Shown here: piece after piece, positions 1 through 47,450 of the stretch
Layout: each line of letters begins with the position of its first letter
How positions within the stretch are numbered: the stretch's first letter is position 1
Source of the DNA: an uncultured Acidobacteriota bacterium
GTDB taxonomy: Bacteria > Acidobacteriota > Thermoanaerobaculia > Multivoradales > UBA5704
DNA: 64,000 nt
Direction: 5' to 3'
NCBI GenBank assembly: GCA_963770895.1
Contig: CAVYRF010000002.1
Location: 896,001-960,000 of the forward strand
Program-made: the position numbers and the translations under genes
The notes under the pieces: generated by a model
Database searches by the model: none
The model's input: the letters and a program-made list of their open reading frames with translations, nothing else
What the model was told of the DNA's origin: nothing

Positions 1-2091
1 CCCCTGGCGCTTGATCTCGATGACGCGGGCGCCCAGGGTCTGCGGCAGGCGCGCTTCGGCCAGGCTCCTGCCGACCAGGTCCGGCGGCACCGGCACCATG
101 CGCAGCGAAAAGTCGGGCGGCAGCTCGACGTATTGGCGGCTGGTGCCGGCTTCGTGGCTCGACACGAAGGTGGCGAGCAGCGACGGGCGCCCCAGCACCT
201 CCTGGGCGTAGACCGCCAGCAGGTCGCGCTTGGCCAGCACGCCCAGCAGGCGGCCGTCGTCGTCCACCACCGGCAGGCGTTCGAACTCGCTGCCCGCGAA
301 CAACCGCGTCGCCTGGTGCAGGCGTTCGTCCTTGCGCACCACGGTGCCAACCGGCACCATCAGGTCGTGGGCCAGGACGGCGGTCAGCATCTCGGGCTGG
401 TCCAGCCACTGCTTGATGTCGTGCAGCGAGATCGCCCCCAGCAGGCGGCCGTCCTCGGCCGCCACGAAGAGGCGCTGGCGGCGCCCGGAAAAGAACGTCT
501 CCACCACCTTGCGGTAGTCGTCGCCGGGACGCAGCAGCTCGGATTCGGGCCGCATCAGGTCCACCGCTTTGAGGCCCGCCAGCACCGCCTCTTCCATCCG
601 CCACGGCAGCTGGATGCCGCGCCCGCGCAGCGGCTCGGTGTAGATCGAATAGCGGTTCAGCCGCTTCGCCAGCATGCTGGAGACGATGGCGGCCAGCATC
701 ACCGGCAGGATCAGGTCGTAGTTGCCGGTGAACTCGAACAGGATGAGGATGGCGCTGATCGGGGCGTGGCTGGTCCCCGCCATCACCGCCGCCATCCCCA
801 CCGTCGCATAGGCGCCATAGGGAGAGGCGATGGCCGGCCACAGCGAGTGGATCCAGTAGCCGTAGGCCCCACCCACCAGGGCGCCGAAGCAGAGCGACGG
901 CGTGAACAGCCCGCCCGAGCCGCCGCTGCCCGAGGTGAGCGCGGTGGCCAGCAGCTTGGCCGCCGCCAGCCCGAGCAGCAGCAGGATGGTGAACTCGTGC
1001 GGCAGGTCGAGCCGCGGCGGCAGGCGCAGCTGCCCCGACAGGGCCAGGTTGATGGTGCCGTAGCCGCGGCCCAGCACGTAGGGCGCGTACAGTCCCAGCA
1101 CGCCGACCAGCGACATGCCGATCAGCGGCTGCAGCGGGCGCGGGATCACCGTCAGGCGATGAAAGACCTTCCGCCCGGCCTCGATACCCGCGACGAAGGC
1201 GATCGACGCCACGGCGCCGACCACCCCCAGGCCGACGTAGGGCAGCAGCTCCCAACCGCTCACCAGGGTGTAGCCGGGAGCGGCGTAGAACGGCACGTTG
1301 CCGACGACCGACCGGGCGATCACCGTGGCGATCACCGACGACGCGACGATCGGACCGAAAATCTCCAGCGCGAAGTTGCCAAGGATCACTTCCATGGCGA
1401 ACAGGGCGCCGCCGATCGGGATGTTGTAGGTGGCGGCCAGACCGGCCGCCGCGCCGCACCCGACCAGAATCTTGACCCGCTGCGCCGGCAGGCCGAAACG
1501 CAGCGCCGTCCACGAGGAGATCAGCGCCCCCAGGCGGATCATCGGCCCTTCGCGGCCGAGCGAGCCGCCGCTGCCGACCGTGAAGATCGACGTCACCGCG
1601 TTGATCAGCACCGGGCGAGGCGCGATCTTGCCGCCGGACAGCGCCACCGCCTCGATCAACATCGCCATGCCTTCGCCGCCGCCGACCGGCTGGCGGGCGA
1701 GCCAGATGACCAGCCCGACCAGCACGCCGCCGCAGGCCGGGGCGGCGACGACCAGCCAGCGCGGCGCCGTCCGCGCCACCGCCAGCAGATCGCCCTGCGA
1801 GCCCCACAGCAGCCGCTGCACGACGTGGATCAGGCCTTCGGTGGCAACACCGAGGAGCCCCCCCACCACCCCGACCACCACGATGAGCACGAAGAACGTG
1901 CGTTCCTCGCGCGTCGCCAGGCCGAAACGCCGGGCCAGGGTGAAATCCAGGGAGCTCAGCCACTGCCGCAGACGCCGCAGGCCAACCGCCCGCGCCGCCC
2001 GCCTCAGCGGACCGCTCAAGGGCGGCGGCCCAGCGCGATCCGAGGCAGTTTCGATACCCACGGAGCTCAATTTATCAGGGTCATCCAACAT
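1..2091 (-). CDS. CLC-family chloride channel/transporter with C-terminal CBS pair and TrkA-C-like domain (3' end runs off window)
   Basis: Manual minus-strand translation from ATG 2091: GSGGSLGREGP, GSGGSGGLFTP, ATYNIPIGGALFAMEV, ILILFEFTGNY, SIYTEPL; then a CBS-like segment and LVGRSLAEARLPQTLGARVIEIKR. Absent from the ORF track because it has no stop in the window. Confidence 0.93.
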   Translation of the reverse strand, partial: MLDDPDKLSSVGIETASDRAGPPPLSGPLRRAARAVGLRRLRQWLSSLDFTLARRFGLATREERTFFVLIVVVGVVGGLLGVATEGLIHVVQRLLWGSQGDLLAVARTAPRWLVVAAPACGGVLVGLVIWLARQPVGGGEGMAMLIEAVALSGGKIAPRPVLINAVTSIFTVGSGGSLGREGPMIRLGALISSWTALRFGLPAQRVKILVGCGAAAGLAATYNIPIGGALFAMEVILGNFALEIFGPIVASSVIATVIARSVVGNVPFYAAPGYTLVSGWELLPYVGLGVVGAVASIAFVAGIEAGRKVFHRLTVIPRPLQPLIGMSLVGVLGLYAPYVLGRGYGTINLALSGQLRLPPRLDLPHEFTILLLLGLAAAKLLATALTSGSGGSGGLFTPSLCFGALVGGAYGYWIHSLWPAIASPYGAYATVGMAAVMAGTSHAPISAILILFEFTGNYDLILPVMLAAIVSSMLAKRLNRYSIYTEPLRGRGIQLPWRMEEAVLAGLKAVDLMRPESELLRPGDDYRKVVETFFSGRRQRLFVAAEDGRLLGAISLHDIKQWLDQPEMLTAVLAHDLMVPVGTVVRKDERLHQATRLFAGSEFERLPVVDDDGRLLGVLAKRDLLAVYAQEVLGRPSLLATFVSSHEAGTSRQYVELPPDFSLRMVPVPPDLVGRSLAEARLPQTLGARVIEIKRQG

Positions 2092-12859: not shown

Positions 12860-14053
12860 ATGGAAAATGAAGCCCTGGCTCTCGACGCCCATCTCGGCGC
12901 CGAGCTGCACCGCCGCTCGTCGGAGCTCACCCGGCTGTGGCTGGACTGCCTGCAAAAGCGGCTCGACGTCAAGCCGCGCCGGATCTTCCCGTCCGAGACG
13001 CTGCTCAATCACATCCCCGAGGTACTGAAGGCCATCTCCGACTATCTCGGGGCCAGCGGCAACGCCGGCGCCGAAGAGCTGGTGCGCACCGAGCTTGCCA
13101 AGCTGGCGCACCTGCGGCGCGAGCAGGGCTACGACGTCGACGAGCTGCTTGCCGAGTTCGAGATCCTGGGCGACATCCTGTACGGCGCCTTGCGCGAAGA
13201 GGCGCTGGCCTTCGACCGCAAGGTGCCCGCCGAATATGCGATCGCGGTGGCCGAAAGGCTCTACCGGGCGCTCATGGCGATCACCAAGATCACCACCAAC
13301 ACCTTCAAGCAGGAGAGCGTGCGCGATCTGCGCGAGCGAGCGCGGCTGCTGGGCGGGTTCGGGCGCGACCTGGCGCACGAGCTGCGCAACCGGCTGGCCG
13401 CCGCCGAAGCGTCCCTCCACATCCTGGCGCACGACGCCGCACCGGTCGGCGAGCGCGCCCAGCGCGCGCTCGCCTCGCTCGGCAATGCCCTGCGCCGCAT
13501 CAACGGCGTCGCCGACGACGTGCACGCGCTGGCGATCGCCCAGGGCAGCGAAGAGTCGGCGCAGGGACGGCGCCTGGCGCTGCGCACGCTGGTGGAGGAC
13601 ACCGTGGCCGAGCTGGCCGGCCTGGCGCGCGAAAAGGACGTGACGCTCGAAGTGGTGGAGCCGCTGCCCGACGTGCAGGTGGACGCCACCCGCGTGGAGC
13701 TGATCCTGATCAACCTGCTCGGCAACGCGATCAAGTACTCCGATGAAACCAAGAGCCGGCGCTGGACGCGCATCTTCGTCACCCCCGAAGCGCCGACGGA
13801 CAACGGCAGCGGCCAATGGCGCGTCGGCGTCGCCGACAACGGCGTCGGCATCGCCGAGGACATGAAGGGGCTGGTCTTCGAACAGTTCGTGCGCGCCCAT
13901 CCCGACATCGCCGACGGCACCGGCCTGGGGCTGGCCATCGCCCGCTCCGCCGTCGAGCAGCTGCGCGGCCGCATCTGGGTAGAGACGGAACCCGGCACGG
14001 GCAGCACCTTCTACTTCACCGTCCTCGATCCGCCGTCCGCGGCGACGACGTAG
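12860..14053 (+). CDS. Cytoplasmic orphan histidine kinase with an RsbRD_N-like N-terminal domain
   Basis: LRREQGYDVDELLAEFEIL (RsbRD_N-like), LAHELRNRL H-box, NLLGNAIKYS, VADNGVGI, GTGLGLAI, PGTGSTFYF. Confidence 0.9.
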   Translation: MENEALALDAHLGAELHRRSSELTRLWLDCLQKRLDVKPRRIFPSETLLNHIPEVLKAISDYLGASGNAGAEELVRTELAKLAHLRREQGYDVDELLAEFEILGDILYGALREEALAFDRKVPAEYAIAVAERLYRALMAITKITTNTFKQESVRDLRERARLLGGFGRDLAHELRNRLAAAEASLHILAHDAAPVGERAQRALASLGNALRRINGVADDVHALAIAQGSEESAQGRRLALRTLVEDTVAELAGLAREKDVTLEVVEPLPDVQVDATRVELILINLLGNAIKYSDETKSRRWTRIFVTPEAPTDNGSGQWRVGVADNGVGIAEDMKGLVFEQFVRAHPDIADGTGLGLAIARSAVEQLRGRIWVETEPGTGSTFYFTVLDPPSAATT

Positions 14054-14082
14054 GCGTCGTCGCCGGGCGGCCGGCGGCCGGT

Positions 14083-15972
<1,890 letters not shown>

Positions 15973-16262
15973 CGACTGCTCCTCCTTGGGGAACCTCCTG
16001 CCATCCTGCGGGGGCCGCCGCCAATCTCAGGGGTCTCAGGGAGCCTCCACTCTTCGCCGGCCGTCGTGCAGGCCGGAGCAGCGGGCATGCGACCCTACGG
16101 TATCTCAGGTGCCGCGGGGAGGCCGGGCTGGGACGCCGGCTCCCACGACCCCCGATCTGGATCGCCTGCCCGGCCGTCGCGCCGCAGCCCAGGGGAGCCG
16201 GCAGGAGCCCGCGGCGCCGGCTTGATAAGATACCGGGCCGCGCCCGCCTGCGCACCCAAACC

Positions 16263-16922
16263 ATGTTCGAGGACCTGACGCGACCGCGAGACACGGCGCG
16301 GCGCCGGTTGCTGCTGGCCGGTTCCGCCCTGCTGCACGCGGCAGCCGTCGCCCTGCTGCTGCGCTCCGGCGCCGGAGGGTCCGCCGCGACCGAGCGCCAG
16401 ATCGACGTCCTGCTGTTCCCGCCGGCACCACGCCCGCACGCCACCGGCAGCGCGCCCGCCGACGCCGCCGCGGACCCGGCGCGGACGGCGCCCGCCGAGC
16501 AGCAGGTGGTGCAGCCCACCGTGGCGCCCGATCCGCAGCCGGCCGCGCCGTCGCCGCCCGCCGATGCCGCAACCGGCGCGCCGGCATCGCCCAATCCCGC
16601 CGGCGCGGAGCCGACGAGCGGCGCCGATCTGCCCGCCGACGCGGGCGGCGACGTGGCACGCCCCCAGCTCATCGCCGCCAGCCGCACCCTGCCCGACTAC
16701 CCCGTCGCGGCGCAGCAGGCCGGCCTTGAAGGGGTCGTCATCCTGAAGACCATCATCGACGAGCGCGGCAAGGTCGGCGACATCCAGGTGCTGCACGGCC
16801 TCGGCATGGGCCTCGACGAAGCCGCCGTCGCCGCCGTCCGCCGCTGGCGCTTCCAGCCTGCCACCCGCAACGGCAAGCCGGTCAAAGTCTTCTACGTCCT
16901 GTCCGTGTACTTCCACCTGTGA
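16263..16922 (+). CDS. TonB-family energy transducer
   Basis: TM SALLH motif, Pro/Ala linker, PDYPVAAQQAGLEGVV, GLDEAAVAAVRRWRFQPA. Confidence 0.9.
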   Translation: MFEDLTRPRDTARRRLLLAGSALLHAAAVALLLRSGAGGSAATERQIDVLLFPPAPRPHATGSAPADAAADPARTAPAEQQVVQPTVAPDPQPAAPSPPADAATGAPASPNPAGAEPTSGADLPADAGGDVARPQLIAASRTLPDYPVAAQQAGLEGVVILKTIIDERGKVGDIQVLHGLGMGLDEAAVAAVRRWRFQPATRNGKPVKVFYVLSVYFHL

Positions 16923-16924
16923 CT

Positions 16925-16961
16925 CCTGGGCGGTGGTGTTCTCACTCGTCGTTGGCGGTGC
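16925..16961. repeat. Left inverted repeat of the DUF262-HipA cassette
   Basis: CCTGGGCGGTGGTGTTCTCACTCGTCGTTGGCGGTGC; its reverse complement matches 19979-20015 at 33/37 positions. Confidence 0.8.
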
Positions 16962-17033
16962 GGGAATGCGGTGCGGGAATGACGATCCGTACCGGGCCTT
17001 GTCTCAATGGCAAGAGGAGGACACCTGGCGCCC

Positions 17034-18224
17034 TTAGAGCTGCAGACCGCTCAGGTGGTGACGCAGGTGTTCCTTCGCTTCACGGTGCATGGGTAGATCC
17101 GCTTCGAGGCGAGCCCAAGCAGCCCTGATCCTTGCTGCCATTTCACCGATTTCGCTGGCCATACGCTGCTCATCAAAGTCACATTTGCGGGCCAGCCGCC
17201 TGAACGCTTCCCTGTCAACCCGCCGAAAATCCTTGTTGCCGTCGAGGTTCAACGCCAATGTATCCTCAGGATAGTAGGCCCGCGTGAACACAAGGTCATA
17301 TGCAGGCGAAAGCGCGGCGGTCCGGTCATCGGGATAGGTCAAGGACCAATTCTTGTGATGAGCGTCGCCGTTTCCCGACAACACCATGAACGCCAAGCGC
17401 CGCGCATACTCCAGAAAAGCATTGTCACCCGCCACCGCCCTGACGACCCTGCCGATCGTCTCGTAGTTGTACTTGATGTACTTTTGGCCTGGGTAGAGCT
17501 TGAGCACCTGTGCGAAATCTTCCTGATGGATCCGTCGCCGATCCTGACGATCGTACCGGCGCACCAGGAGGGCCTGCTGTTCTTCCAGCTGCCCGACTTC
17601 GCGTGGCAGCCCCTCCACGCCGGCGATCGGGATGAGCTCGACATCCGGAACTTCAATCCCCGATTCCTGAGCCCAGGTTAAGATCGAAAACTCGTTCGCT
17701 GGTACCAGAGAATGACGGCTGTCGGGAAGCTTCAAGATCCAATCGCCGCCTCGGCCGGAAACGGGTAGGACCACGCCCTTTCCTTTGCGCAACGCGGAGA
17801 ACTTCAACTGCACCCCGGCAAGAGAGAACTTAAGCGGTGAATCGCCGTTCAGATAGGAGGCGGAAGGGGGCTCATCGCCGGTCTCCGGCATCTCGCCCGG
17901 AGCGGCTTCGACAACCACGGCGCCAGGAAGGTCGCCCCCAAGGTAGGCCAGCAAGGAGAGGTCGTCAGGTTCCTGGATCTCGGCATGACGGACGATCAGG
18001 TCGTGCAGGGCGCCTTCGGGCAGCAGGTTGGCGAAGAAGGGCGGCAGGCGGCCTGCCGTCTTGTACGGCCGGCGTGGATCGTCCAGGAAGCTCTGGCCCA
18101 GCACGGGCCTGCGGCTCATGTCCAGGTAGCTGCTGGCAAAACGGAACTCGAAGACATTGCCGGCCAGGCGGCCGAGGCTGCCAACCGTCCGGTCACCCAG
18201 TTTCACCGCAAGATGGTCCATCAT
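17034..18224 (-). CDS. HipA-family Ser/Thr kinase toxin with N-terminal subdomain
   Basis: LPPFFANLLPEG, FSLAGVQLKF, WILKLP, RRYDR, HQEDFAQ, GNGDAHHKNWS, LSPAYDLV; ATGA overlap with the upstream gene. Confidence 0.92.
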   Translation of the reverse strand: MMDHLAVKLGDRTVGSLGRLAGNVFEFRFASSYLDMSRRPVLGQSFLDDPRRPYKTAGRLPPFFANLLPEGALHDLIVRHAEIQEPDDLSLLAYLGGDLPGAVVVEAAPGEMPETGDEPPSASYLNGDSPLKFSLAGVQLKFSALRKGKGVVLPVSGRGGDWILKLPDSRHSLVPANEFSILTWAQESGIEVPDVELIPIAGVEGLPREVGQLEEQQALLVRRYDRQDRRRIHQEDFAQVLKLYPGQKYIKYNYETIGRVVRAVAGDNAFLEYARRLAFMVLSGNGDAHHKNWSLTYPDDRTAALSPAYDLVFTRAYYPEDTLALNLDGNKDFRRVDREAFRRLARKCDFDEQRMASEIGEMAARIRAAWARLEADLPMHREAKEHLRHHLSGLQL

Positions 18225-19816
18225 TCGGCAACCACCAATGTGTCGATCGCGGGCCGATCGCGATCGCTCGGATCCCATTCGGCGCGGTCGTCCAGGAAAC
18301 GCTGGACATGCACTCTCAGGTCCAGCTCGCGGTGCCGCAGGAACCTGGCAAGGTCGCCCTGATGCAGCGCCCGCGCCGCGGCGGATGAGATCAGATGCGA
18401 CCGCAGAATGTCCTCATCCTCGCACTGCACGAGCTGCCGGCGAAGCGACGTCTTACCGTGTCTCGCCTGCAGAATGCGGTTGGCCAGACCCTCCGCTTCC
18501 GGGATGCTGTTAGTCGACGACAGGCGCCGCGCCGGACCTTCCGGCTGTTCGCAGAGCCGAGCGACGTCGAGGCTATCTCCCGTCTGGATGTCGCGAGGGC
18601 GCAGCGATCCGAGTGCGATCAGCTGCAGCTTGGTGCGGGCGAACCGGAAGCGATAGGGCCGCAGCGCCGGATCCTCGGTAGGGCGCTGGCCTACCTCCGC
18701 CAGAAGGCTGCGCACCGACGCGACCTCGTCGCCCCCCTTGACAGCATCAAGGGTCCGCCGGAGCGACACCGTGTCACCGCGGTGGGTGCCGCTTACGGCT
18801 CCCCGCCAGAGCCACCGAGTGAGCAGCTGGCGGGTTCGATACGCCGGTTCGGGATGCTCGTGGAAGAAGAGCGCCAGGGTGACCAGCGGCAGCCGATAGG
18901 GCATCAAGGAGATGTGCGGAAATTGTGCCTCTTTGACGAAGACAATCGCATTGCGCAGCGCCGCAGCCGTATCGGCCAGCGCTGCCGGTACGTCGACCTC
19001 CGGAATCTGCCGGAAGCTGCGCGCCTGGTCTTTGCGCCGCACGGCGAGCAGGGCGCGCAGAATAAGCTTGCTTTCGATGCGGCCGAATTGCAGCTGCAGG
19101 AGCAGATCGGCAATGCCATGCAAGCTCGACGGCTCCTGCGAGCTTTGGGCGCCAAACAGCGCGTCGAAGACTTCCTCCCCCTTCAGCTGTTTGCCGCTTG
19201 TGTTCATGCGATCGAAAATGTTGCGTAGCACCTTCTCGCCGGCCTCGACCACATAGGACGTCGTTTGATACTCGCGCAGGCGTTTACCCAGTTCGAAAGC
19301 GGTCAACTGATTGGGCCCCGTCAGCTGATTGGCGCTGGCCCAGGCCATCAGGCGGACTGCATCGTGCACCTCGCTCAAGGGGATCCAGAGCGGAGCCGGT
19401 TTTTGCGTCGCCGTTCCGTACGCGAATGCCTTGTCGGCCAGATTGAATCGGATCGTGCGGCCGGCCGGATTGGATCCCGCACCGGCGAGCAGGACCGAAG
19501 CGAGGGTGGTGACCCGCTGCTGTCCGTCGACGATCCACAGAGCATCCGTGCGCCCCTCGGCATCGACGGCAAAGTCGCCAAAGTAACTTCGTGCAGCTTC
19601 TGCCGGATGCTTCCAGAAGAGCAGGGTGCCGATCGGGAAGCCGCGATAGATACTGTCGAAGAGCGCGATGCGATCCTGATCGCCCCAGTTTAGAGCTCTT
19701 TGAAATTCAGGGATGCGAATCCGCCCCGCTCCGATTTCGCTTAGCAGATCCTCGACCGAGATCGCACGGGCTTCCGGACGCCGGTCCAGGCGAGCGGTGC
19801 TTTCGAATACGGACAT
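18221..19816 (-). CDS. DUF262 (GmrS/ParB-like) domain protein with a degenerate HNH-like C-terminus
   Basis: IPEFQRALNW, FDSIYRGFPIGTLLFW, IVDGQQRVTTL, IFDRMNTSGKQL; C-terminal LANRIL...SHLI...FLRHR. Confidence 0.88.
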   Translation of the reverse strand: MSVFESTARLDRRPEARAISVEDLLSEIGAGRIRIPEFQRALNWGDQDRIALFDSIYRGFPIGTLLFWKHPAEAARSYFGDFAVDAEGRTDALWIVDGQQRVTTLASVLLAGAGSNPAGRTIRFNLADKAFAYGTATQKPAPLWIPLSEVHDAVRLMAWASANQLTGPNQLTAFELGKRLREYQTTSYVVEAGEKVLRNIFDRMNTSGKQLKGEEVFDALFGAQSSQEPSSLHGIADLLLQLQFGRIESKLILRALLAVRRKDQARSFRQIPEVDVPAALADTAAALRNAIVFVKEAQFPHISLMPYRLPLVTLALFFHEHPEPAYRTRQLLTRWLWRGAVSGTHRGDTVSLRRTLDAVKGGDEVASVRSLLAEVGQRPTEDPALRPYRFRFARTKLQLIALGSLRPRDIQTGDSLDVARLCEQPEGPARRLSSTNSIPEAEGLANRILQARHGKTSLRRQLVQCEDEDILRSHLISSAAARALHQGDLARFLRHRELDLRVHVQRFLDDRAEWDPSDRDRPAIDTLVVAE

Positions 19817-19978
19817 AAGCAAGAGTGGGCGACCACAGCAGGACGCCCCCCATAGGGCATGCCGGCCTCGGCCTGGAGTGGCGAAGGGTCGGCCTGCCTG
19901 CGGCGAGCCTATCATTGACGGCGGTAACCTGGCGGCAGACCGCGTGCCGCGCGCGGATCCGCCTACGGCGCCCAGCCA

Positions 19979-20015
19979 GCACCACCAACGACCAGTGAGG
20001 ACACCACCGCCCGGG
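19979..20015. repeat. Right inverted repeat of the DUF262-HipA cassette
   Basis: GCACCACCAACGACCAGTGAGGACACCACCGCCCGGG, inverse of 16925-16961. Confidence 0.8.
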
Positions 20016-20079
20016 CAGGCGGTTTGACGGCCGGAGCGGCACTCCGTAAGCTGCAAAGCGGCTGGGGACGGGCCGCGGC

Positions 20080-21528
20080 GTGGCACGAAGTCCGCAGGCA
20101 GGGGAGCAGCGGCAAGGGGCGGCAAGGGAAGGAGGGTCGGCATTGGCGGCAGAGCAGACCAGGTATGACGCGTTGGTGGCGGGGGGCGGACCGGCCGGGT
20201 CGACGGCGGCGCTGGTGATGGCGCGGGCGGGGATGCGGGTGCGGCTGTGCGAGCGGGCGCGGTTCCCGCGCTTTCACATCGGCGAATCGTTCCTGCCGGC
20301 CAACCTCAACCTGATCCGCGAGCTGGGCCTGGCGGACCGCTTGAGCCGCGTGCCGCAGACGGACAAGCAGGGCGCGGAATTCGTGTTCGCGGACGGCAGG
20401 CAGGGGCAGCTGTTCTCGTTCTCCATCAGCCTGGTGGAAAACCTGGTGCAGGCGTTCAACCTGGAGCGCGCGCCCTTCGACGCGATGCTGCTCGCGGCGG
20501 CGCGCGACGCCGGGGCCGAGGTGAGCGAAGACTGCGGCATCCGCCGCATCCTGCGCCTCGAAGAGGGCGACGTCGAGGTGGAGACGGATGCGGGACAGCG
20601 GCTGAGCGCCGGCGTCCTGGTGGACGCCAGCGGCCAGGGGACGCTGGTCGGCCGCCATCTGGGGCTGCGGCGGGTGATGGCGGACCACCGCAAGGTCGCC
20701 TTCTTCGGTCACTTCACCGGGGTCGAGCGGCGCGGCGGCGTCGAGGGCGGCTACCCGACCATCGTGATGTGCGACGAAGGGTGGTTCTGGATCATCCCGA
20801 TCGACGATCGGCGCGACAGCATCGGCCTGGTGATGGACGTCGACGCGGCGCGCCGGGCGGGTGTGCCCCACGACCAGATGCTGGCCTGGGGGATCGCCCG
20901 CTGTCCCCTGGTGCGCCGCCGTACGGCCACCGCAAGCGGGGCCGACGGCAACCTGGTGTGCGCCGATTTCAGCTATCGCTGCGAGCCGTTCGCCGGGCCG
21001 GGTTACTTTCTGGCGGGCGACGCGGCGACGTTCCTGGACCCGATCTTTTCGACCGGCGTCTGCATGGCGATGATGAGCGCCGCCGAGGCGGCGCGGGGCG
21101 CCATCGCCCTCGACCGGCGGACGGCGCCCGCGGCGCGGGTGCGGCGGCGGTACCACCGCTTTGTCGACCGCAGCACGGCGCCCTTCTTCGGCATCGTGCG
21201 CGGCTACTACGACCATTCGTTCCGCGAGCTGTTCGTCAACGGCACCGGGCCGCTGCAGATCCATCGGGCGGTGATCGCCGTCCTGGCCGGCGGCGTCTTC
21301 CCGCGCCCGGTATGGCGCCTGCGCTGGCGCCTCGCCCTGTTCCACTTCCTGCGCCGCGTCAACCGCCATCTGCCGCTGGTGCCGCGCCGCCAACGCTTCT
21401 CGCTGTTCGGCGCCGACGCCGAAAGCGACGCCGCGGCGCTGCGGCCGGAAGCCTTCGGCCCCGCGGTAGAGCAGCCCCAGGCGTCGCCGGTCGCGTTGGC
21501 GGCGGAAGCGGTCGCGCCGCCGCGATGA
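20080..21528 (+). CDS. Flavin-dependent halogenase-like oxidoreductase
   Basis: GGGPAG, RFHIGESFLP, candidate catalytic Lys in DKQGAEF, WFWIIP (WxWxIP), GDAATFLDPIFSTGV; start uncertain. Confidence 0.85.
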   Translation: MARSPQAGEQRQGAAREGGSALAAEQTRYDALVAGGGPAGSTAALVMARAGMRVRLCERARFPRFHIGESFLPANLNLIRELGLADRLSRVPQTDKQGAEFVFADGRQGQLFSFSISLVENLVQAFNLERAPFDAMLLAAARDAGAEVSEDCGIRRILRLEEGDVEVETDAGQRLSAGVLVDASGQGTLVGRHLGLRRVMADHRKVAFFGHFTGVERRGGVEGGYPTIVMCDEGWFWIIPIDDRRDSIGLVMDVDAARRAGVPHDQMLAWGIARCPLVRRRTATASGADGNLVCADFSYRCEPFAGPGYFLAGDAATFLDPIFSTGVCMAMMSAAEAARGAIALDRRTAPAARVRRRYHRFVDRSTAPFFGIVRGYYDHSFRELFVNGTGPLQIHRAVIAVLAGGVFPRPVWRLRWRLALFHFLRRVNRHLPLVPRRQRFSLFGADAESDAAALRPEAFGPAVEQPQASPVALAAEAVAPPR

Positions 21529-22562
21529 GCGCCCACCCGGGCGCCGGCTTCCGCCTGCTGGGCCAGCTCCGCCCATCACGCCCTCCAGCTGCGCCGTCGG
21601 CGCCGGCGGGTGCCCCCCCTGCCGGCACGCCGCCGGTGGCGGAGGTGGAAGTCCAGTCCGACAGCCCTCTGTTTGCCGGCCACTTTCCTCTCCAGCCGGT
21701 GCTTCCCGGCATCGCTCACCTGGCGCTCCTGGAATGGGTGCTGGCGCAGCTGGCCGCAGCTGGCGACCCCGCGGCCGGCGGCGCAGCGGCCGCGCCCGGA
21801 AACCGCACGGCGATCCGCCAGGTGCGCCAGGTCCGCTGGCGCCGCCCGGTGGCGCCGGGCGACCGGTTACAGGTCTGGGTGGAATCCGCCGGCGAGGACG
21901 CGGCCTGGCGCTTCGAGCTGCGGCGGGATACCCAGGTCGTGAGTCACGGGCTGATCTCCTGTGCGGACGCCCCATCCTCGGGGCCGCCGGCAGCCGGCCT
22001 GCTCGATGGAGCGCCGGAGCCGGCGGGCGGCGGGTTTCCGCACCCTGCCCTCCTGCTGCCGCACGGCCCCGCGGCGCAGCTGCTGGCGCGGGTGGTCCGC
22101 GTCAGCCCGGCGGCGGCAGTCGGAGAGGGAGGAGCGGGCGTGGGGGTCGAGGCGGCAGGAATCGTCTGCCACGCCGTCATCCCCGACGACCACCCGCTGG
22201 CCGCCGGCGGCACGGCGCCCGGCGTTCTGGCGCTTGAGATCGCCGCCCAGGCGGCCGCGGCCTGGATGTCGCTGCGGCAGCGGCGCGCTGATGGCGGCAG
22301 TGGCGGCGATGGCGGGAGTGGCGCCATGGGCGCCATGGGCGGCAACGGTGGTGAGCCGCGCGTCGGTTACCTGGTCGCCGCCCGCGACGTGCTGCTGGCG
22401 CCGCGGCTGGCGGCGGGCACGCCGCTGCGGATCGCCGTCACCGCTGCCGGCGGCACGGCGCAGCTGGGAATCTACCGGCTGGCGCTGGACGTCGCCGGCG
22501 CGGCGGCACCGTCCGGCGGGCTCGCCACGGGCGCGATCAGCATCTTCGTCGACGGGCGCTGA
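21525..22562 (+). CDS. Fused double hotdog-fold dehydratase (ApeI-like + ApeP-like)
   Basis: N domain LFAGHFPLQPVLPGI; C domain LLPHGP...LEIAAQAAAA...PRVGYLV; ATGA overlap with the halogenase gene. Confidence 0.8.
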   Translation: MSAHPGAGFRLLGQLRPSRPPAAPSAPAGAPPAGTPPVAEVEVQSDSPLFAGHFPLQPVLPGIAHLALLEWVLAQLAAAGDPAAGGAAAAPGNRTAIRQVRQVRWRRPVAPGDRLQVWVESAGEDAAWRFELRRDTQVVSHGLISCADAPSSGPPAAGLLDGAPEPAGGGFPHPALLLPHGPAAQLLARVVRVSPAAAVGEGGAGVGVEAAGIVCHAVIPDDHPLAAGGTAPGVLALEIAAQAAAAWMSLRQRRADGGSGGDGGSGAMGAMGGNGGEPRVGYLVAARDVLLAPRLAAGTPLRIAVTAAGGTAQLGIYRLALDVAGAAAPSGGLATGAISIFVDGR

Positions 22563-22570
22563 CGCTCAGC

Positions 22571-23674
22571 TCAGGGCCACAGGCGGCGGAAGCAGAACCA
22601 TTGATGGGGCTGGCGGGCGATGGCGCGCTCCAACTCGGCGGCGAAGCGGCGCAGGGCTTGGTCGAGGTCGGCCCGGCGGTCGGCCGACGGCGGCACCGCG
22701 ATGGGCGGGCGCAGCTCGCAGCGGTAGCGGCGGCGGCCCTCGCGAAAGACGAACACCGGCACCATCGGCACGCCGGCGGCGCGGGCCAGCGCTGCCGGCC
22801 CGACCGGCAGCGGAAAGGGGCGCCCGAACAGACTGAGGGTGGCGGATTGGCCGCCGGCGCGCGGGCGGTCGCCCTGCAGCGCCACGATCTCGCCGCGACG
22901 CAGGGCGTCGAGCAGCGTCAGGCCCAGCTGCGGGTCCTCGGCGAAATGGGTGACGTAGAGGCCGCCGCCGGTCTGTTTCTTCATCAGGCCGGAGATGTAT
23001 TCCTGCGCTTTCGGATCGGTCTCCGCTTCGCGCACCACGTGGACCAGCCGCGATTCGGCGGTCGCCGGCAGCATCGAACCCACCTCCCAGCTGCCGATGT
23101 GGGCGGTCACCATCAGGCACCCCTGGCCGCTGCGCGCCAGCTCGTTCCAGCGCTCCAGGCCTTCGGCGTACAGGTGAAACGGGCGGCGCGTGACCAGCCG
23201 TTCGTAGCGCTCGGTCAGGCACCAGGCGAAGCTCCACAGGGTCTTCCAGATCCGCGCCTGCCGGCGCGGCCAGCCGCAGGGCCCCAGCACGGCTTCCAGG
23301 TTGTCGCCCACCGCGGTGCGGATGTTGAGCAGCGTGACGAAGAAAAAACTGGTGAAGGTGGCGATGAACGCCCCCATCAGCGCCCCTGGGAAGAACGCCA
23401 CGCCCCAGCCGTGGAACCGGTACCAGAACACCCCGGTGACGTGGAACGGCCCGAGCAGCCGGCGCACCCACCCGGTTTCGGGAGCGTGCGGCGGCGGCGC
23501 GGCGGGCATCGCCGGAGCGGGCGCCACCGGCGCCGCCCCTCCCGGCATCGCCACGCCCGACGCCGCTGCCGGCGACGCCATCGCCGGTGACACCAGGCCG
23601 GCGGTGGCGCCGACGGCGACCCTGGCCGGCGGTTTGGGCGGCGACAGGGGACGCGACAGGCGGTTGCGCATCAT
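22571..23674 (-). CDS. LpxL/HtrB-like (lipid A lauroyl family) acyltransferase
   Basis: LMVTAHIGSWE, GEIVALQGDR, LFGRPFPLPVGP, PHQWFCF. Confidence 0.88.
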   Translation of the reverse strand: MMRNRLSRPLSPPKPPARVAVGATAGLVSPAMASPAAASGVAMPGGAAPVAPAPAMPAAPPPHAPETGWVRRLLGPFHVTGVFWYRFHGWGVAFFPGALMGAFIATFTSFFFVTLLNIRTAVGDNLEAVLGPCGWPRRQARIWKTLWSFAWCLTERYERLVTRRPFHLYAEGLERWNELARSGQGCLMVTAHIGSWEVGSMLPATAESRLVHVVREAETDPKAQEYISGLMKKQTGGGLYVTHFAEDPQLGLTLLDALRRGEIVALQGDRPRAGGQSATLSLFGRPFPLPVGPAALARAAGVPMVPVFVFREGRRRYRCELRPPIAVPPSADRRADLDQALRRFAAELERAIARQPHQWFCFRRLWP

Positions 23675-26214
23675 GGCTGCCCCGCCGCCGCCGCACCGGG
23701 CGGCGGCCCCTTGACCAGCCCCAGCGCCTCGATGGCCGGCAGCACCAGGAAGGTGGCCGCCAGGCAGGCGGTGATGCCGGCGGAAACCAGGATGCCGGCG
23801 GCGGCCAGGCTGGGCACGCGCGAAGTGCACAGGCTGCCGAAGCCGACGGCGGTGGTGAAGGTGGCCATCAGCATCGCCAGGCCGACGTCCTCCACCGTGC
23901 CGGCCAGGCCGCGGTGCGGATGCAGCCGCCGCCAGTGCACGGCGTGGGCGCCCAGGTCGATGCCGGTGCCCAGCAGCAGCGGCACGGTGAAGATGGCCAG
24001 CAGGTCGAGCGGCCGGCCGCAGGCGCTCCAGATGCCGAACGTCCACAGGCACCCCAGGGTGAGCGGCAAGAAGGCCAGCAGCGCCGAGGCGACGCGGCCG
24101 CGAAACGACACCAGCACGACGATCGCCACCAGCGCCAGCGCCAGGCCGCTCGACCGCAGCAGATCGGCCAGCGCCAGCTGCTTGAGCTCGGCGCCCACCC
24201 GCGGCGCGGAGGCCAGCGCGGCGCCCGGCGCCACCCGCCCCAGCTCGGCCGCGAGCGTCGCGGGCACCCCGGCCCCCGGCGTCGCGCCCTGCGGCAGGCG
24301 CACGTGCACCGCCACCGCCGCCCCGCCCGGCGGCACGCCGTAGACGCCGGGTCCGCTGCGCACCAGCTCGCGCATCCAGCTCGGCCAGGCGTCCGGCGCC
24401 GGCGCCCCGCTGTCCTCGCCGCGCGCGAAGCCGCGCAGGGTGGCGAGCGCCGGCGCGAACGGCGCGGCGCTGAAGCCGGCGGCAAGCAGCTCGCGCTGCA
24501 GGTCGTCCGCGGCACGTCCCAGCGGCAGCGCCCGCAGCGCCGCCAGGCGCTCCGCGCGCCGCCGCCCCACCACCAGCCAGTCCGCCGGCGTGGTGATCTC
24601 CGCCCGCGGCCCCAGGCGCCGGCGCAGCAGCGCGGTCGCCGCCGCGGCGCGGTCCAGCGCCTGGTCCAGGTCGCGCCCCGTCACCACCACCGACAGGGTG
24701 TCCAGGCCCAAGCCGAAGCTGTTCACCAGCAGCTCCTCCGCCGCGGCCGACGGCGGATCGGCCGGCCGCAGCACGCGCAGGTCGGTGGACAGGCTGGCGC
24801 GCGACAGGCCCCAGGCGCCGAACGCCGACAGGCCCAGCGCCACCGCCACCACCACCCGCGGCCAGCGGGTTGCCAACCCCACCAGCGCGCGCAGCCCCGG
24901 CTGCCCCCAGCGGGCCCAGGCGCGCGGCCGCGCCGGCGGCCGCACCGCCGCGCCGGGGGCGCTCGCCGCCAGCGCGGCGCTCAGGGTGACGGTGGCGAGC
25001 AGCGTCGCCAGCACCCCCAAGGCCAGCACCAGGCCGATCTCGCGCAGCGGCCGGAAGTGGGCGGTTGCCAGCGCCCCCAGGCCGGCGGCGGTCGCCAGCG
25101 CCGCGGTCAGCACGCCGGGGCCGGTGGCGCGGTAGGCGCCCGCCAGCGCCTGCTCGACGCCGGCGCCGGCCAGACGCAGGTCGCGGTAATGGACGCCGCC
25201 GTGAATCCCGTAGTCGACCCCCATGCCGACCAGGGCGGCGGCGAAGCCGATGCCGACCACGGTCAGCAGCGGCATCGTCAATCCCACCGCGCCGGCCGCC
25301 CACAGCAGGCCGGCGAGGACCGCGACCAGGATGGCGGCCGGCAGCAGCAGCCCTTCGAAGCCGGCCAGCAGCACCAGCGCCACGCCGCCCACCGTCGACG
25401 TCGCGGTGCGCGTCAGGTCGCTGCGCAGGATCCCTTCGTCCTGCGCCGCGTACAGCGGTCCACCCACCGCCTTGAAGTCGAGCGGCACCGCCACCTTGGC
25501 GCGCACCCGCGCGTAGGCCTGGTCGAGGGCGGCCTGCAGGGCGCGGCCGCCGGCGGGGTCGATCTCGGCGCGCGCCGGCGTCAGGATCACCATCGCCACG
25601 TCGCCGCGGCGCGACAGGAAGGCGCCCGAAATGGGGTCCATCGGCACGGCGTTGGCCAGCTGGCCCAGCAACCCTTCGGACATGCCGAGCGGATCGCTGG
25701 CAAAGAGCTCCGCCAGGGCGCCGCCGCCGGGGCTGGCCAGCGTCTGGCGCATCAGCGCCACGCGCCGCTTGAGCGCCGCCGGGTCCAGGCGCGCGGCCAG
25801 GTCGCCGCTGCCCGCCGCGGCCAGCAGCGGCATGCGCGGCGCGATGTAGCGGTAGAAGAAGCGCTCGTCCTCGTCGGTGCGGCCGCTCCTGGCGTCCGCC
25901 ACCTCGCGGTTGGCGCGCATCTCGTCGGCCAGCGCCGCCGCGGCGTCCTCGAGCGGCCCCGGATCGTCCAGCGGCAAGCCCCGCGAGCGCACCAGCACGA
26001 AGACCTTTTCGAAGCCGCCGAAGGTGCGCAGGAACACCCGGTAGTCGTCGGCGGCCGGCGCCCCGCTGGGCAGCAGCGTCGCCAGATCGGCGTTGATGCG
26101 GATGCGCGCCGCCGGGGCCAGCGCCGCCAGGCAGGCCGCCAGGCAGACCGCCAGCACCGTGCGCGGCCGCCGCGCCACGAGCGACGCCAGCGCGGCGCCC
26201 GCGCCGCCGCTCAC
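23671..26214 (-). CDS. MMPL/RND-family exporter
   Basis: Two TM repeats with GMGVDYGIH and GTGIDLGAH, TAVGFGSL; GTG start overlapping the fabG stop. Confidence 0.9.
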   Translation of the reverse strand: MSGGAGAALASLVARRPRTVLAVCLAACLAALAPAARIRINADLATLLPSGAPAADDYRVFLRTFGGFEKVFVLVRSRGLPLDDPGPLEDAAAALADEMRANREVADARSGRTDEDERFFYRYIAPRMPLLAAAGSGDLAARLDPAALKRRVALMRQTLASPGGGALAELFASDPLGMSEGLLGQLANAVPMDPISGAFLSRRGDVAMVILTPARAEIDPAGGRALQAALDQAYARVRAKVAVPLDFKAVGGPLYAAQDEGILRSDLTRTATSTVGGVALVLLAGFEGLLLPAAILVAVLAGLLWAAGAVGLTMPLLTVVGIGFAAALVGMGVDYGIHGGVHYRDLRLAGAGVEQALAGAYRATGPGVLTAALATAAGLGALATAHFRPLREIGLVLALGVLATLLATVTLSAALAASAPGAAVRPPARPRAWARWGQPGLRALVGLATRWPRVVVAVALGLSAFGAWGLSRASLSTDLRVLRPADPPSAAAEELLVNSFGLGLDTLSVVVTGRDLDQALDRAAAATALLRRRLGPRAEITTPADWLVVGRRRAERLAALRALPLGRAADDLQRELLAAGFSAAPFAPALATLRGFARGEDSGAPAPDAWPSWMRELVRSGPGVYGVPPGGAAVAVHVRLPQGATPGAGVPATLAAELGRVAPGAALASAPRVGAELKQLALADLLRSSGLALALVAIVVLVSFRGRVASALLAFLPLTLGCLWTFGIWSACGRPLDLLAIFTVPLLLGTGIDLGAHAVHWRRLHPHRGLAGTVEDVGLAMLMATFTTAVGFGSLCTSRVPSLAAAGILVSAGITACLAATFLVLPAIEALGLVKGPPPGAAAAGQP

Positions 26215-26948
26215 GCCGAGGCTCCGGCGTCCACCACCAGCGTCTGGCCGGTGATGGCGGCTGCCCGGTCCGACAGCAGGAACAGCACCGCCTGCGCCAC
26301 CGCGCCGGTCGAGGTGCCGCCGGCCAGCGACTCGCCGGCGCGCAGCGCGGTCACCGCGGCGGCCGGCACGCCGGCGGTCAGGTCGGTCGCCACAAAACCC
26401 GGCACCACGGCGTTGACGCGCACCTGGCGCTTGCCCACCTCCCGCGCCAGGGCGCGGGTCAGGCCCAGCATGCCGGCCTTGGCCGCGGCATAGGCGGCCT
26501 GCCCGGCGACGCCGTGCAGCGCCGACAGCGACGCCACGTTGACCACCGCACCGCGCCGGCGCACCAGCATGCCGCGCAGCACCGCGCGGCAGCAGCGGAA
26601 GGTGCCGCCCAGGTTGGCGTCCACCACGGCATCCCAATCTTCGTCGCTCATCATCGCCAGCAGCGCTTCGCGCCGCTCGCCGGCGTTGTTGACCAGCCCT
26701 TCGATCGGGCCCAGCGCCGCCTCCACCTCGGCCACCAGCTCGTCGGGCCGGTCGCGGTCGCGCAGGTCGAGCTGGAAGGCGCGGGCGTGGCCGCCGCTCG
26801 CCTGCTCGAGATGCTCCGCCGCCTGCCGCTGCGTGCGCCAGGTGAACGCCACCGCCGGCGCGGCGCCGGCGGGCGCCGCCGCCACCAGCGCTTCCACCAC
26901 CGCGCGGCCGATACCGCGGCTGCCGCCGGTTACCAGGATCGTGCCCAT
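26211..26948 (-). CDS. fabG: 3-oxoacyl-ACP reductase (SDR)
   Basis: TGGSRGIG, LVNNAG, YAAAKAG, VNAVVPGFVATD. Confidence 0.9.
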   Translation of the reverse strand: MGTILVTGGSRGIGRAVVEALVAAAPAGAAPAVAFTWRTQRQAAEHLEQASGGHARAFQLDLRDRDRPDELVAEVEAALGPIEGLVNNAGERREALLAMMSDEDWDAVVDANLGGTFRCCRAVLRGMLVRRRGAVVNVASLSALHGVAGQAAYAAAKAGMLGLTRALAREVGKRQVRVNAVVPGFVATDLTAGVPAAAVTALRAGESLAGGTSTGAVAQAVLFLLSDRAAAITGQTLVVDAGASA

Positions 26949-27721
26949 CAGCGCACCTGCCAGCGGGCGCGCAGCACCGCGCCGGCGATCCGCAGGCTGT
27001 CCACCATCGGCCGGTAGTGGCTGGTGGTGCGCCCGTCGGCGAAACCGAGATGGATGGGTACCGAGGCGATACGGAACCCGCGCCGCGCCGCCCGCACCAC
27101 GACGGCGCTTTCGGCCTCGAAGCGCGCCTCGGAGAAGCCGACGGCAGCGATGAGCTCGCGCCGATACAGGCGGAAACCGGTCTGCACGTCGGACAGCCGC
27201 CGCCCGGCGGCAAAGGAGATCGCCGACGACGAGATGCGGTTGGCAGCCCGCCGCACGCTGCTCATGCCGGCAAACAGGTGATCGCGGATGCCCAGGACCA
27301 GGTCGGCTTCGCCGGCCAGCGCCAGCAGCTTGGGCACCTCTTCCGGCAGGTGCTGGCCGTCCGCGTCCAGGGTCACGACCGCGGTACAGCCGCGCCCGAA
27401 CAGGTCGTCGAAGGCGGCCGCCAGCGCCCTGCCCTTGCCCTGGTTGCACGGCAGCGAGATGACGCGCGCACCGGCCTGGCGCGCCGCATCGGCGGTGCCG
27501 TCGCTCGACCCGTCGTCGATCACCAGCACGTCGGGCAGCAGGCGCAGCATCCCCGCGACCACCGCCCCCACCGAAGGCGCGGCCTGGTACGCCGGGATCA
27601 CTGCGGCGATGCGCTCTGGCAGCGGACCGTCCATGGCAGGCGAGGGAGTCGCAACTCGAGGCATCATCGTATCGGCTTCGGCGGGCCCGCGGCCAGCGTC
27701 GCTGCGGCGATCGTCGCTCAC
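26948..27721 (-). CDS. GT2-family glycosyltransferase
   Basis: VIPAYQ, VIDDGSSDGT, NQGKG, TLDADGQH, DVQTGFRLY, RFEAE, SHYRP. Confidence 0.92.
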   Translation of the reverse strand: MSDDRRSDAGRGPAEADTMMPRVATPSPAMDGPLPERIAAVIPAYQAAPSVGAVVAGMLRLLPDVLVIDDGSSDGTADAARQAGARVISLPCNQGKGRALAAAFDDLFGRGCTAVVTLDADGQHLPEEVPKLLALAGEADLVLGIRDHLFAGMSSVRRAANRISSSAISFAAGRRLSDVQTGFRLYRRELIAAVGFSEARFEAESAVVVRAARRGFRIASVPIHLGFADGRTTSHYRPMVDSLRIAGAVLRARWQVR

Positions 27722-47374: not shown

Positions 47375-47450
47375 GGGGCAGTAGCTCAGCTGGGAGAGCA
47401 CCACGTTCGCAACGTGGGGGTCGAGGGTTCGAATCCCTTCTGCTCCACCA
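47375..47450 (+). tRNA. tRNA-Ala(CGC)
   Basis: 76 nt; GGGGCAG/CTGCTCC acceptor stem with G3:U70; anticodon loop TTCGCAA; GGTTCGAATC; encoded CCA. Confidence 0.98.

Follow-up and report, generated by a model that had tools for sequence, protein, structure and literature searches.

Both of the protein families dealt with here are known: HipA as a persistence kinase, and DUF262 as a sensor domain of type IV restriction and of Ssp/Dnd defence. What appears to be new is their combination. The accessible part of the classification of Hip kinases by Gerdes et al. (2021; PMC8262856) describes the HipA kinases as toxins in their own right, whose usual behaviour in the family is the phosphorylation of an aminoacyl-tRNA synthetase followed by growth arrest. 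It sorts the kinases into ten operon organisations, none of which, in the portions available, has a DUF262 partner; the available main text makes no mention of DUF, and the available supplementary tables are without DUF262, Azospirillum, Accumulibacter, Sorangium, Haliangium, Streptomyces and Rhizobium (PMC8262856). On the DUF262 side, the accessible text on BrxU names RLFDS and DGQQR as motifs of the nucleoside triphosphatase (NTPase), and has BrxU and GmrSD acting as single polypeptides (PMC8565348). In the Menshen system NsnABC the DUF262 protein is argued to be the sensor, and the part of that paper open to us makes no mention of a kinase (PMC12065111). For ptuXYZ, the available text proposes a sensor-effector logic in which DUF262 does the sensing and toxicity resides in a second protein (PMC11980606). 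The present work concerns a stretch of 64,000 nucleotides from an uncultured Acidobacteriota bacterium (GenBank assembly GCA_963770895.1, contig CAVYRF010000002.1, positions 896,001 to 960,000), referred to below as the window, in which a DUF262 protein and a HipA kinase are encoded side by side in a small insert at 16925-20015, the cassette, with no helix-turn-helix (HTH) antitoxin gene.

The cassette consists of two minus-strand genes, the DUF262 gene first and hipA second (Table 1). The start of the DUF262 gene was chosen to agree with the N-termini of 23 homologues. Its TGA stop (18223-18221) overlaps the ATG start of hipA (18224-18222), the minus strand reading GCC GAA TGA in the one frame over ATG ATG GAC in the other, which is the ATGA coupling that a first-pass annotation of the window had noticed. 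That annotation had also claimed that the cassette holds neither an HTH antitoxin gene nor a transposase, and both absences stand: all ten of the other open reading frames (ORFs) inside the cassette or at its edges are without a Pfam family at E <= 0.01, hence no HTH gene and no transposase among them, and a tblastn search of the 64-kb window with E. coli HipB and two rhizobial HTH antitoxins reached an E of 0.17 at best.

The pairing of the two genes extends far beyond this one genome. A profile built from a 24-sequence DUF262 alignment was run against contigs representing one genome per species, and the loci described below are among the matches listed. The scan yielded at least 80 loci, and the closest DUF262 relative among the matches listed is 43% identical to the window's protein; a protein relative outside these loci (P0003) is 77% identical. 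Checked by gene neighbourhood, as had been suggested in the first pass, a hipA gene lies directly downstream on the same strand in 40 of the 45 listed loci that cover at least 75% of the DUF262 query. The linked HipA homologues are 31-49% identical to the HipA of the window. By heuristic start calls, the gap between the two genes is -17 to +46 nucleotides (nt) in all but one locus, with a 4-nt overlap in ten. The paired loci span five phyla, namely Myxococcota, Actinomycetota, Pseudomonadota, Planctomycetota and Acidobacteriota. Among the 40, a clean HipA ORF of 380-430 residues is present in 31, a 666-residue HipA-methyltransferase fusion in two (L003, L004), and a degraded or split HipA in four (L018, L025, L036, L043), some of which may be assembly errors. 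The five listed loci without HipA include two that end at a contig edge (L008, L015), one that is an operon of another kind, PDC-M55ABC (L046), and two others (L016, L047). None of the 33 listed loci that match only the N-terminal part of DUF262 has a HipA. Read from the lists of top matches to each protein, 28 DUF262 matches have a longest contig exactly as long as that of a HipA match. Two Azospirillum plasmids carry the same pair, which the Prokaryotic Genome Annotation Pipeline names 'DUF262 domain-containing protein' and 'type II toxin-antitoxin system HipA family toxin'.

The two proteins also vary together. Their pairwise identities are correlated across 32 pairs with a Mantel r of 0.85, a value reached by none of 2000 permutations, and the nearest neighbour is identical for both proteins in 19 of the 32 pairs. 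Judged from these identities, the pattern shows two genes co-inherited as a unit, the correlation alone being no proof of co-evolution. In a Dactylosporangium locus (L018) a HipA remnant of about 100 residues is left beside an intact DUF262 gene, and in S. venezuelae strain L12 (L025) HipA is spread over three frames beside an intact DUF262 gene, although the latter may be a sequencing error. This loss of HipA before DUF262 is the order of decay expected if HipA is the toxin. Taken together, the DUF262-HipA pair is supported as a real, conserved functional unit.

A conserved third gene, or a hidden HipB, was sought and rejected: an all-against-all blastp comparison of 1472 flank ORFs, covering ORFs of at least 70 residues and alignments of at least 60 residues with very small ORFs outside its scope, found no ORF family in more than three loci. 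Other DUF262 families came up in the scan of the contigs. Their proteins (L048-L079, 29 loci) are 583-766 residues long, carry a C-terminal SLFN_AlbA_2 domain in 11 of the 29 and RAMA in 7 of the 29, and none has a HipA neighbour. They were no help as a guide to the nuclease motif discussed next, as 0 of these 29 N-terminal-only relatives has a Pfam GmrSD_C match.

The DUF262 protein of the cassette carries all the motifs that the first-pass annotation had read in it (FQR at residues 38-40, DGQQR at 97-101 and F.R.N, as FDRMN, at 201-205), together with LFDS at 52-55. Pfam places GmrSD_N (DUF262) at residues 21-221 (E 1.4e-25) and nothing C-terminal to it. Across 37 diverse members of the family, none departs from DGQQR. 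An AlphaFold model of the protein has a predicted local distance difference test score (pLDDT) of 92.5, and by far its best structural match in Foldseek is BrxU, a type IV restriction enzyme of the GmrSD family (E 2e-12). Structure alignment to BrxU by VIA covers 449 residues (model 14..517 against chain 1..583) with Z 16.2 and a root-mean-square deviation (rmsd) of 12.8, and hhalign finds the relationship with a probability of 98.5% over residues 20-396. The N-terminal domain also matches the CTPase domains of ParB, Noc and KorB (Z about 8, rmsd about 3, 92-99 residues aligned). The layout is that of a ParB-type NTPase, a helical middle and a DUF1524-like C-terminal domain.

The C-terminal domain is a case of a fold that outlasts its motif. 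Folded alone, the last 147 residues reach a pLDDT of 92.2 and align with BrxU 445..583 with Z 8.2 and rmsd 3.0 over 109 residues; the next structure matches are DndI (Z 4.9) and the C-terminal domain of SspE (Z 3.9). In sequence, the hhalign match to BrxU ends at 396/455, just before the DHIYP motif (D474, H475), and the C-terminal profile alone matches the BrxU C-terminus with a probability of 0.45%. Neither Pfam GmrSD_C/DUF1524 nor a DHIxP motif was found in the protein, and phmmer with its C-terminal 152 residues gave no match to PDB sequences at E <= 10. The stretch equivalent to DHIYP would lie at about 409-414, after the invariant P407, an equivalence taken from the alignment offset and ranges and not from a residue-level superposition. 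Position 409 is D in the window copy and H, D, N, S, E or L in relatives, and ANRxxHP and SH motifs are conserved in the C-terminal part. These observations support the view that the DUF1524 domain has kept its fold and lost the DHIxP catalytic motif, and that the protein is predicted to be nuclease-dead. The apparently degenerate nuclease-like C-terminus proposed in the first pass is thereby given substance by the missing GmrSD_C and DHIxP, the hhalign value and the variable catalytic stretch. The family is sizeable, not rare. Among the scored candidates, 681 homologues match at E <= 0.001, and the best 119 homologues listed are full-length proteins of 511-610 residues, apart from one fragment of 295 residues. 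With a profile of the C-terminal domain, the cluster representatives matched among 1.84 billion number 1340 at E <= 0.001, 836 at E <= 1e-10 and 51 at E <= 1e-30. In the top 150 of these matches at most about 25 residues follow or precede the domain's end at the end of the protein, and the longest protein has no more than 585 residues.

The partner is an intact HipA kinase, as had been claimed, with both of its domains (Couple_hipA at residues 5-105, E 1.9e-20; HipA_C at 133-370, E 6.8e-49) and matches to HipT and HipA chains in the PDB at E 3.7e-14 to 1e-12. Its catalytic loop GNGDAHHKN (283-292) aligns with GNNDMHLRN of HipT, and the region of D310 with YDFV. The P-loop lysine K141, the residues N285, D287, H289, K291 and N292, and D310 are invariant in all 32 of the DUF262-linked HipAs. 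A HipA fragment, P0122, is 95% identical to the kinase of the window. Fusions of DUF262 to HipA were looked for among the long HipA homologues (694-2000 residues, E <= 1e-20) and discarded, with 0 of 21 carrying PF03235; the terminal position of the domain and the lengths in the top 150 matches of the C-terminal profile, given above, are weak evidence to the same effect. These 21 homologues (P0243-P0263, 703-811 residues) have instead an extension of about 300-400 residues without a Pfam domain, and one of them also has tetratricopeptide repeats. A fusion of another kind occurs in the two Myxococcaceae loci mentioned above (L003, L004), in which HipA is joined to a C-terminal class I S-adenosylmethionine-dependent methyltransferase; it matches Methyltransf_25 (E 4e-13) and PADLOC mad2 (E 3.4e-16), and may link the module to nucleic-acid modification.

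A prediction of the complex, which the first-pass annotation had named as a check on the pairing, places the two proteins together. With our own alignments the DUF262-HipA model scored 0.81, and the best of three controls 0.00. Among complexes with solved structures, 116 of 157 come up to that mark, as do 2 of 215 mismatched pairs, counts that are only approximate since our own alignments were used. The runs agree in at least 98% of the contacts, and the partner pLDDT is at least 80. We know of no solved DUF262-HipA complex, and it hence seems unlikely that the score comes from a complex on which the model was trained. On the DUF262 side the predicted interface consists of residues 325-327, 506, 510 and 517-531, and on the HipA side of residues 37-52, 240-266, 299-303 and 326-348, a surface that extends from the N-terminal subdomain onto the kinase core. 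The DUF262 tail itself has low confidence in the monomer model (74 and 48 in the last blocks), and in 119 sequences its residues W514, D520, R521, P522 and L527 are at least 90% conserved. Conservation of a tail (about 514-531) which the monomer model places with little confidence is characteristic of a docking peptide, at the level of these models. Judging from the predicted complex, we consider it likely that the DUF262 protein binds HipA.

The position of the DUF262 gene is telling when the operons of the nearest other kinases are examined. Outside the DUF262-linked set, the closest HipAs found are on rhizobial plasmids, at about 41% identity; plasmid HipA records at E <= 1e-30 number 218. 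All three rhizobial plasmid loci inspected (pTiB230_85, pNGR234a, pMspAR02c) have upstream a 197-residue HTH regulator whose gene shares 8 nt with hipA. A maximum-likelihood tree built from 38 HipAs places the three rhizobial HipAs among the DUF262-linked ones and sets E. coli HipA far outside, as an outgroup on a branch of length 3.5. The backbone of the tree is unresolved (support 91/78), so neither monophyly nor the direction of a partner swap can be claimed. What can be said is that the DUF262 protein occupies the slot which in the nearest other HipA operons is held by an HTH regulator. The rhizobial HTH proteins end in a Pro, hydrophobics and an acidic tail resembling the DUF262 tail, a likeness of low complexity.

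One of the two proteins has kinship with defence systems. The DUF262 protein aligns along its whole length with PDC-M55C, the PADLOC profile of a candidate system (E 1.9e-59; its residues 14-510 pair with positions 10-536 of the 554 in the profile). It matches HEC-05, NsnA and SspE over the N-domain only, the NsnA match being partial (E 6.8e-14). HipA gives only a weak match to PDC-M03A in PADLOC, and none to PDC-M55A or PDC-M55B. As for the neighbours of the pair, 127 nearest-flank proteins from 36 loci (L003, L036, L042 and L043 left out) were compared with PADLOC, and 14 of them, spread over 12 loci, match at E <= 1e-10. The neighbourhood gives modest support for a role in defence. Some actinobacterial pairs lie beside strong matches, namely to DarG (E 6.5e-126), HEC-01A (E 6e-133), JetA (E 1.2e-26) and a C5 methylase (E 2.3e-113).

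The reading that we prefer is a composite one, in which the DUF262 protein is the sensor and antitoxin, and HipA the kinase effector, of a single module. It is plausible, and we would give it a probability of roughly 0.5. In the scheme that follows, the inferred elements are the neutralisation of HipA, the signal that is sensed, the target of the kinase and the defence against phage. The DUF262 protein would bind HipA via its conserved C-terminal tail and keep the kinase inactive, in the antitoxin role that an HTH protein has elsewhere. Its NTPase and DNA-binding part would serve as the input and, by analogy with GmrSD, BrxU and SspE, could respond to foreign or modified DNA or to a nucleotide state. 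The signal would release or activate HipA, and the released kinase would phosphorylate an aminoacyl-tRNA synthetase and stop translation and growth, the outcome being abortive infection or addiction. The steps do not carry equal weight. That the DUF262 protein neutralises HipA is slightly more likely than not; protection against phage falls just short of an even bet. The complete version, an immune system in which a nuclease-dead sensor of the GmrSD/BrxU type would hold HipA by the tail until foreign or modified DNA releases the kinase to stop translation, is a tentative proposal by analogy that we would call possible rather than probable.

Several observations weigh against the composite reading. 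Three listed loci (L016, L046, L047) carry a DUF262 relative without HipA. L046, a PDC-M55C relative, and L047, which is unpaired, have the tail motif too, and since both of these lack HipA, the tail is not specific to the HipA partnership and had to be rejected as a HipA-specific signature. The complex score, itself a product of modelling, reflects the confidence of the model alone. About half of the family has a His at the inferred position of the catalytic His of BrxU, and some members may, to judge by this residue, retain residual nuclease activity. The PADLOC matches in the flanks come without a background rate, and several of them are generic (kinase, methyltransferase, cysteine desulfurase). 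Finally, the surroundings in the window are a lipid/aryl-polyene-like cluster and no defence island.

One alternative is a plain addiction or toxin-antitoxin module that senses no phage at all, with the DUF262 protein as a large antitoxin and autorepressor. The DNA-binding middle of the protein would here replace the HTH of HipB, the NTPase would be for regulation or turnover, and the module would persist through post-segregational killing on mobile DNA. The gene order, the overlap and the HipA clade, all of them the same as in HTH-HipA operons, agree with this, as do the occurrence of the pair on plasmids, the 24 of 36 loci without conserved defence neighbours, the non-defensive setting in the window, and the degraded HipA beside an intact DUF262 gene in L018 and perhaps L025. 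A protein of 531 residues with strictly conserved NTPase motifs, however, goes far beyond the needs of neutralisation; the closest characterised DUF262 relatives are defence sensors, and a third of the loci lie beside PADLOC matches. We regard the module without sensing as unlikely. Very unlikely is the reverse assignment, with the DUF262 protein as the effector, a still-active or HipA-activated nuclease akin to type IV restriction, and HipA as its regulator or a second effector: the retained DUF1524 fold, the His in the PR[H/D] stretch of several members, the conserved ANRxxHP and SH, and the hint of a nucleic-acid modification link in the two Myxococcaceae fusions speak for it, but DHIxP is missing, neither Pfam nor hhalign recognises the domain, the residue at the candidate catalytic position differs between members and is Asp in the window copy, and the catalytic residues are invariant in HipA, whose family are toxins in their own right according to the accessible text (PMC8262856).

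The ends of the cassette deserve separate consideration. The first-pass annotation had described a lower-GC insert bounded by inverted repeats matching at 33 of 37 positions, with no transposase and no obvious target duplication, and had suggested that it is a non-autonomous mobile unit. The composition holds, with a guanine-cytosine (GC) content of 0.58-0.68 over about 16800-20000 and of 0.70-0.79 in both flanks, the window being about 72-79% GC around the cassette. The 33/37 repeat proved to be the inner part (16928-16964) of a 40-nt repeat whose arms are complementary at 35 of 40 positions (88%). Its local-alignment score is 55, against a maximum of 31 in 30 shuffles, and its arms stand where the GC content changes. 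Because the inverted repeat is real and placed at the boundaries of composition, we take the cassette to be very probably foreign, horizontally acquired DNA. No target-site duplication was found for any boundary between 16925/20015 and 16928/20012, as had been noted in the first pass; the flanks, ...CTGTGACT and CAGGCGGT..., have no common direct repeat for any boundary within 3 nt. The repeat as a dispersed element of the repetitive extragenic palindromic type can be set aside: more copies would be expected in 64 kb, whereas the window holds two, both of them the arms (0 expected), and none was found in 83 loci or in plasmids.

Whether such ends make the cassette a mobile unit is a different matter. 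Mobile insertion cassettes and elements like the miniature inverted-repeat transposable elements (MITE), in the usage of ISfinder, have terminal inverted repeats around passenger genes and no transposase. The cassette is built in the same way, but has no target-site duplication, and neither a second copy nor a cognate transposase in the window, the 83 loci or the plasmids. The repeat itself, searched for as the first pass had suggested, had no match in the 83 loci, and blastn against the plasmid collection gave nothing significant, the best E being 0.2. Nor do the relatives share these ends: when the 600-nt flanks of 38 related loci were aligned locally, none of the loci showed repeats above the shuffle controls, and because of this the family does not travel with such ends, and flanking repeats were rejected as a family trait. 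What stands of the mobile-unit claim is thus the repeat itself and the dip in GC; the duplication, the further copy and the repeats in relatives are missing, and we consider a non-autonomous transposable unit doubtful. In a competing account the insertion would have broken apart a pre-existing host palindrome, whose halves are now the arms, or the arms would be left over from the recombination that brought the cassette in; either way the cassette would not be mobile itself. It is in keeping with the missing target-site duplication, with a cassette that has no transposase and no further copy in 64 kb, with the blank result in the 83 loci and the plasmid collection, and with the 0 of 38 related loci; it is harder to square with arms that fall on the GC boundaries, and a palindrome with a 40-bp stem in an intergenic spacer of 66 nt would be unusual. 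We hold the split palindrome to be a tentative explanation, short of probable.

With regard to its surroundings, the cassette interrupts a lipid/aryl-polyene-like biosynthesis and export cluster, whose genes include a histidine-kinase-like gene (RsbRD_N/HATPase_c), an AMP-ligase, TonB_C, a FAD-dependent enzyme like Trp-halogenase, a FabA-like gene, a lipid-A-type acyltransferase, MMPL and a ketoreductase. The TonB_C gene adjoins the insert on the left, and the FAD-dependent halogenase-like gene on the right. A scan for promoters found no sigma-70-like site in the leader of the DUF262 gene, a result that carries little weight at 73% GC. The one terminator-like site found lies inside the DUF262 gene, and the number is at or below the shuffle expectation. 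Rfam gave no match at E <= 1 over 16000-21000, and there is no tRNA near the cassette, the single one in the window being a tRNA-Ala at 47375. The features of the cassette and of the loci compared with it are collected in Table 1.

Table 1. Coordinates of the features discussed, in the window (first ten rows) and in the compared loci.
Feature	Position	Strand	Remarks
DUF262 gene	18221..19816	-	531 aa
hipA	17034..18224	-	396 aa; Couple_hipA + HipA_C
ATGA overlap, DUF262 stop / hipA start	18221..18224	-	translational coupling; read from sequence
Leader, presumed promoter region	19817..19975	-	159 nt; between right repeat arm and DUF262 start
Left repeat arm	16925..16964	.	40 nt; 3 nt past TonB_C stop; 70 nt downstream of hipA stop
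Right repeat arm	19976..20015	.	40 nt; 64 nt upstream of halogenase-like gene
13-nt tandem repeat, unit GCGGTGCGGGAAT	16955..16981	.	2.1 copies, 100% match; overlaps inner end of left arm
TonB_C gene	16263..16922		left neighbour
FAD-dependent halogenase-like gene	20080..21528		right neighbour
Lipid/aryl-polyene-like cluster	12860-28535		interrupted by the cassette
Rhizobial HTH-HipA operons	L084:1897-3718, L085:1900-3712, L086:1900-3763		plasmid loci
Loci with strong PADLOC neighbours	L032:15918-17108, L033:12510-13643, L029:2694-3806, L022:9437-10879
HipA-methyltransferase fusions	L003:1844-3841, L004:1899-3896		Myxococcaceae; 666 aa
HipA remnant	L018:9576-9878		Dactylosporangium; about 100 aa
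HipA in three frames	L025:9722-10862		S. venezuelae strain L12
PDC-M55ABC operon	L046:772-4779		Ca. Contendobacter; complete

We found no description of a DUF262-HipA pair in the literature, subscription-only papers and the pages of PADLOC-DB and TADB being outside the scope of the search. The novelty can be put in two ways: the pair is a HipA toxin module whose partner belongs to a new class or, equally, a DUF262 sensor system with a kinase for its effector. If the complete version, the immune system, holds, the DUF262 sensor systems would gain a branch whose effector is a kinase, and the hip operons an eleventh type. If the composite reading is true, growth arrest of the HipA type would be linked directly to an input that senses DNA or nucleotides. 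It would also show, in nature, one antitoxin replacing another inside a single clade of kinases, with an HTH regulator on the one side and a DUF262 protein on the other.

It is useful to set the pair beside its known counterparts one at a time. The kinase is a regular member of the HipA family of Ser/Thr kinases, with HipA_C and Couple_hipA and with the catalytic-loop, Mg and P-loop residues in place. Like hipBA of E. coli K-12, the pair has an intact HipA as the second gene, translationally coupled to the first, and a partner that is predicted to bind it. It differs in what lies upstream: where a hipBA type II toxin-antitoxin module has an adjacent HTH antitoxin, HipB, the gene here encodes a DUF262 protein, a BrxU-like NTPase of 531 residues. 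The rhizobial HTH-HipA operons come closer, as gene order, start/stop overlap and HipA clade are the same, and the one difference is the partner, a 197-residue HTH regulator there and a DUF262 protein here. When the comparison is made from the side of BrxU, GmrSD and SspE, the DUF262 protein has the same architecture over its full length (LFDS and DGQQR in the NTPase, then a helical region and last a DUF1524 fold), but it is without DHIxP and without a Pfam GmrSD_C, and while BrxU and GmrSD are single polypeptides, it is paired with a kinase.

A shared logic is seen in PDC-M55, Menshen and ptuXYZ, in all of which, as here, a DUF262 protein without a working DUF1524 nuclease stands beside a separate toxic effector. 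The cassette belongs to none of those compared gene by gene. It has a PDC-M55C protein, but no adjacent PDC-M55A or PDC-M55B, and it resembles Menshen only by the partial match to NsnA, there being no NsnB or NsnC gene in the cassette. A complete PDC-M55ABC operon was seen in Ca. Contendobacter (L046), where an ABC ATPase of the AAA_15/DUF3696 type and a 323-residue protein without an assigned role accompany a DUF262 protein of 600 residues. That DUF262 protein is 28% identical to the one in the window, the same scaffold being used with a different set of partners. In PDC-M55, Menshen and ptuXYZ the DUF262 protein goes with an ABC ATPase and a toxin; the cassette has no gene for an ATPase transducer, and its effector would be the HipA kinase instead of an RNase or nuclease. 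If the composite reading holds, DUF262-HipA would follow the same logic with two genes, a kinase serving as the effector and no ATPase taking part.

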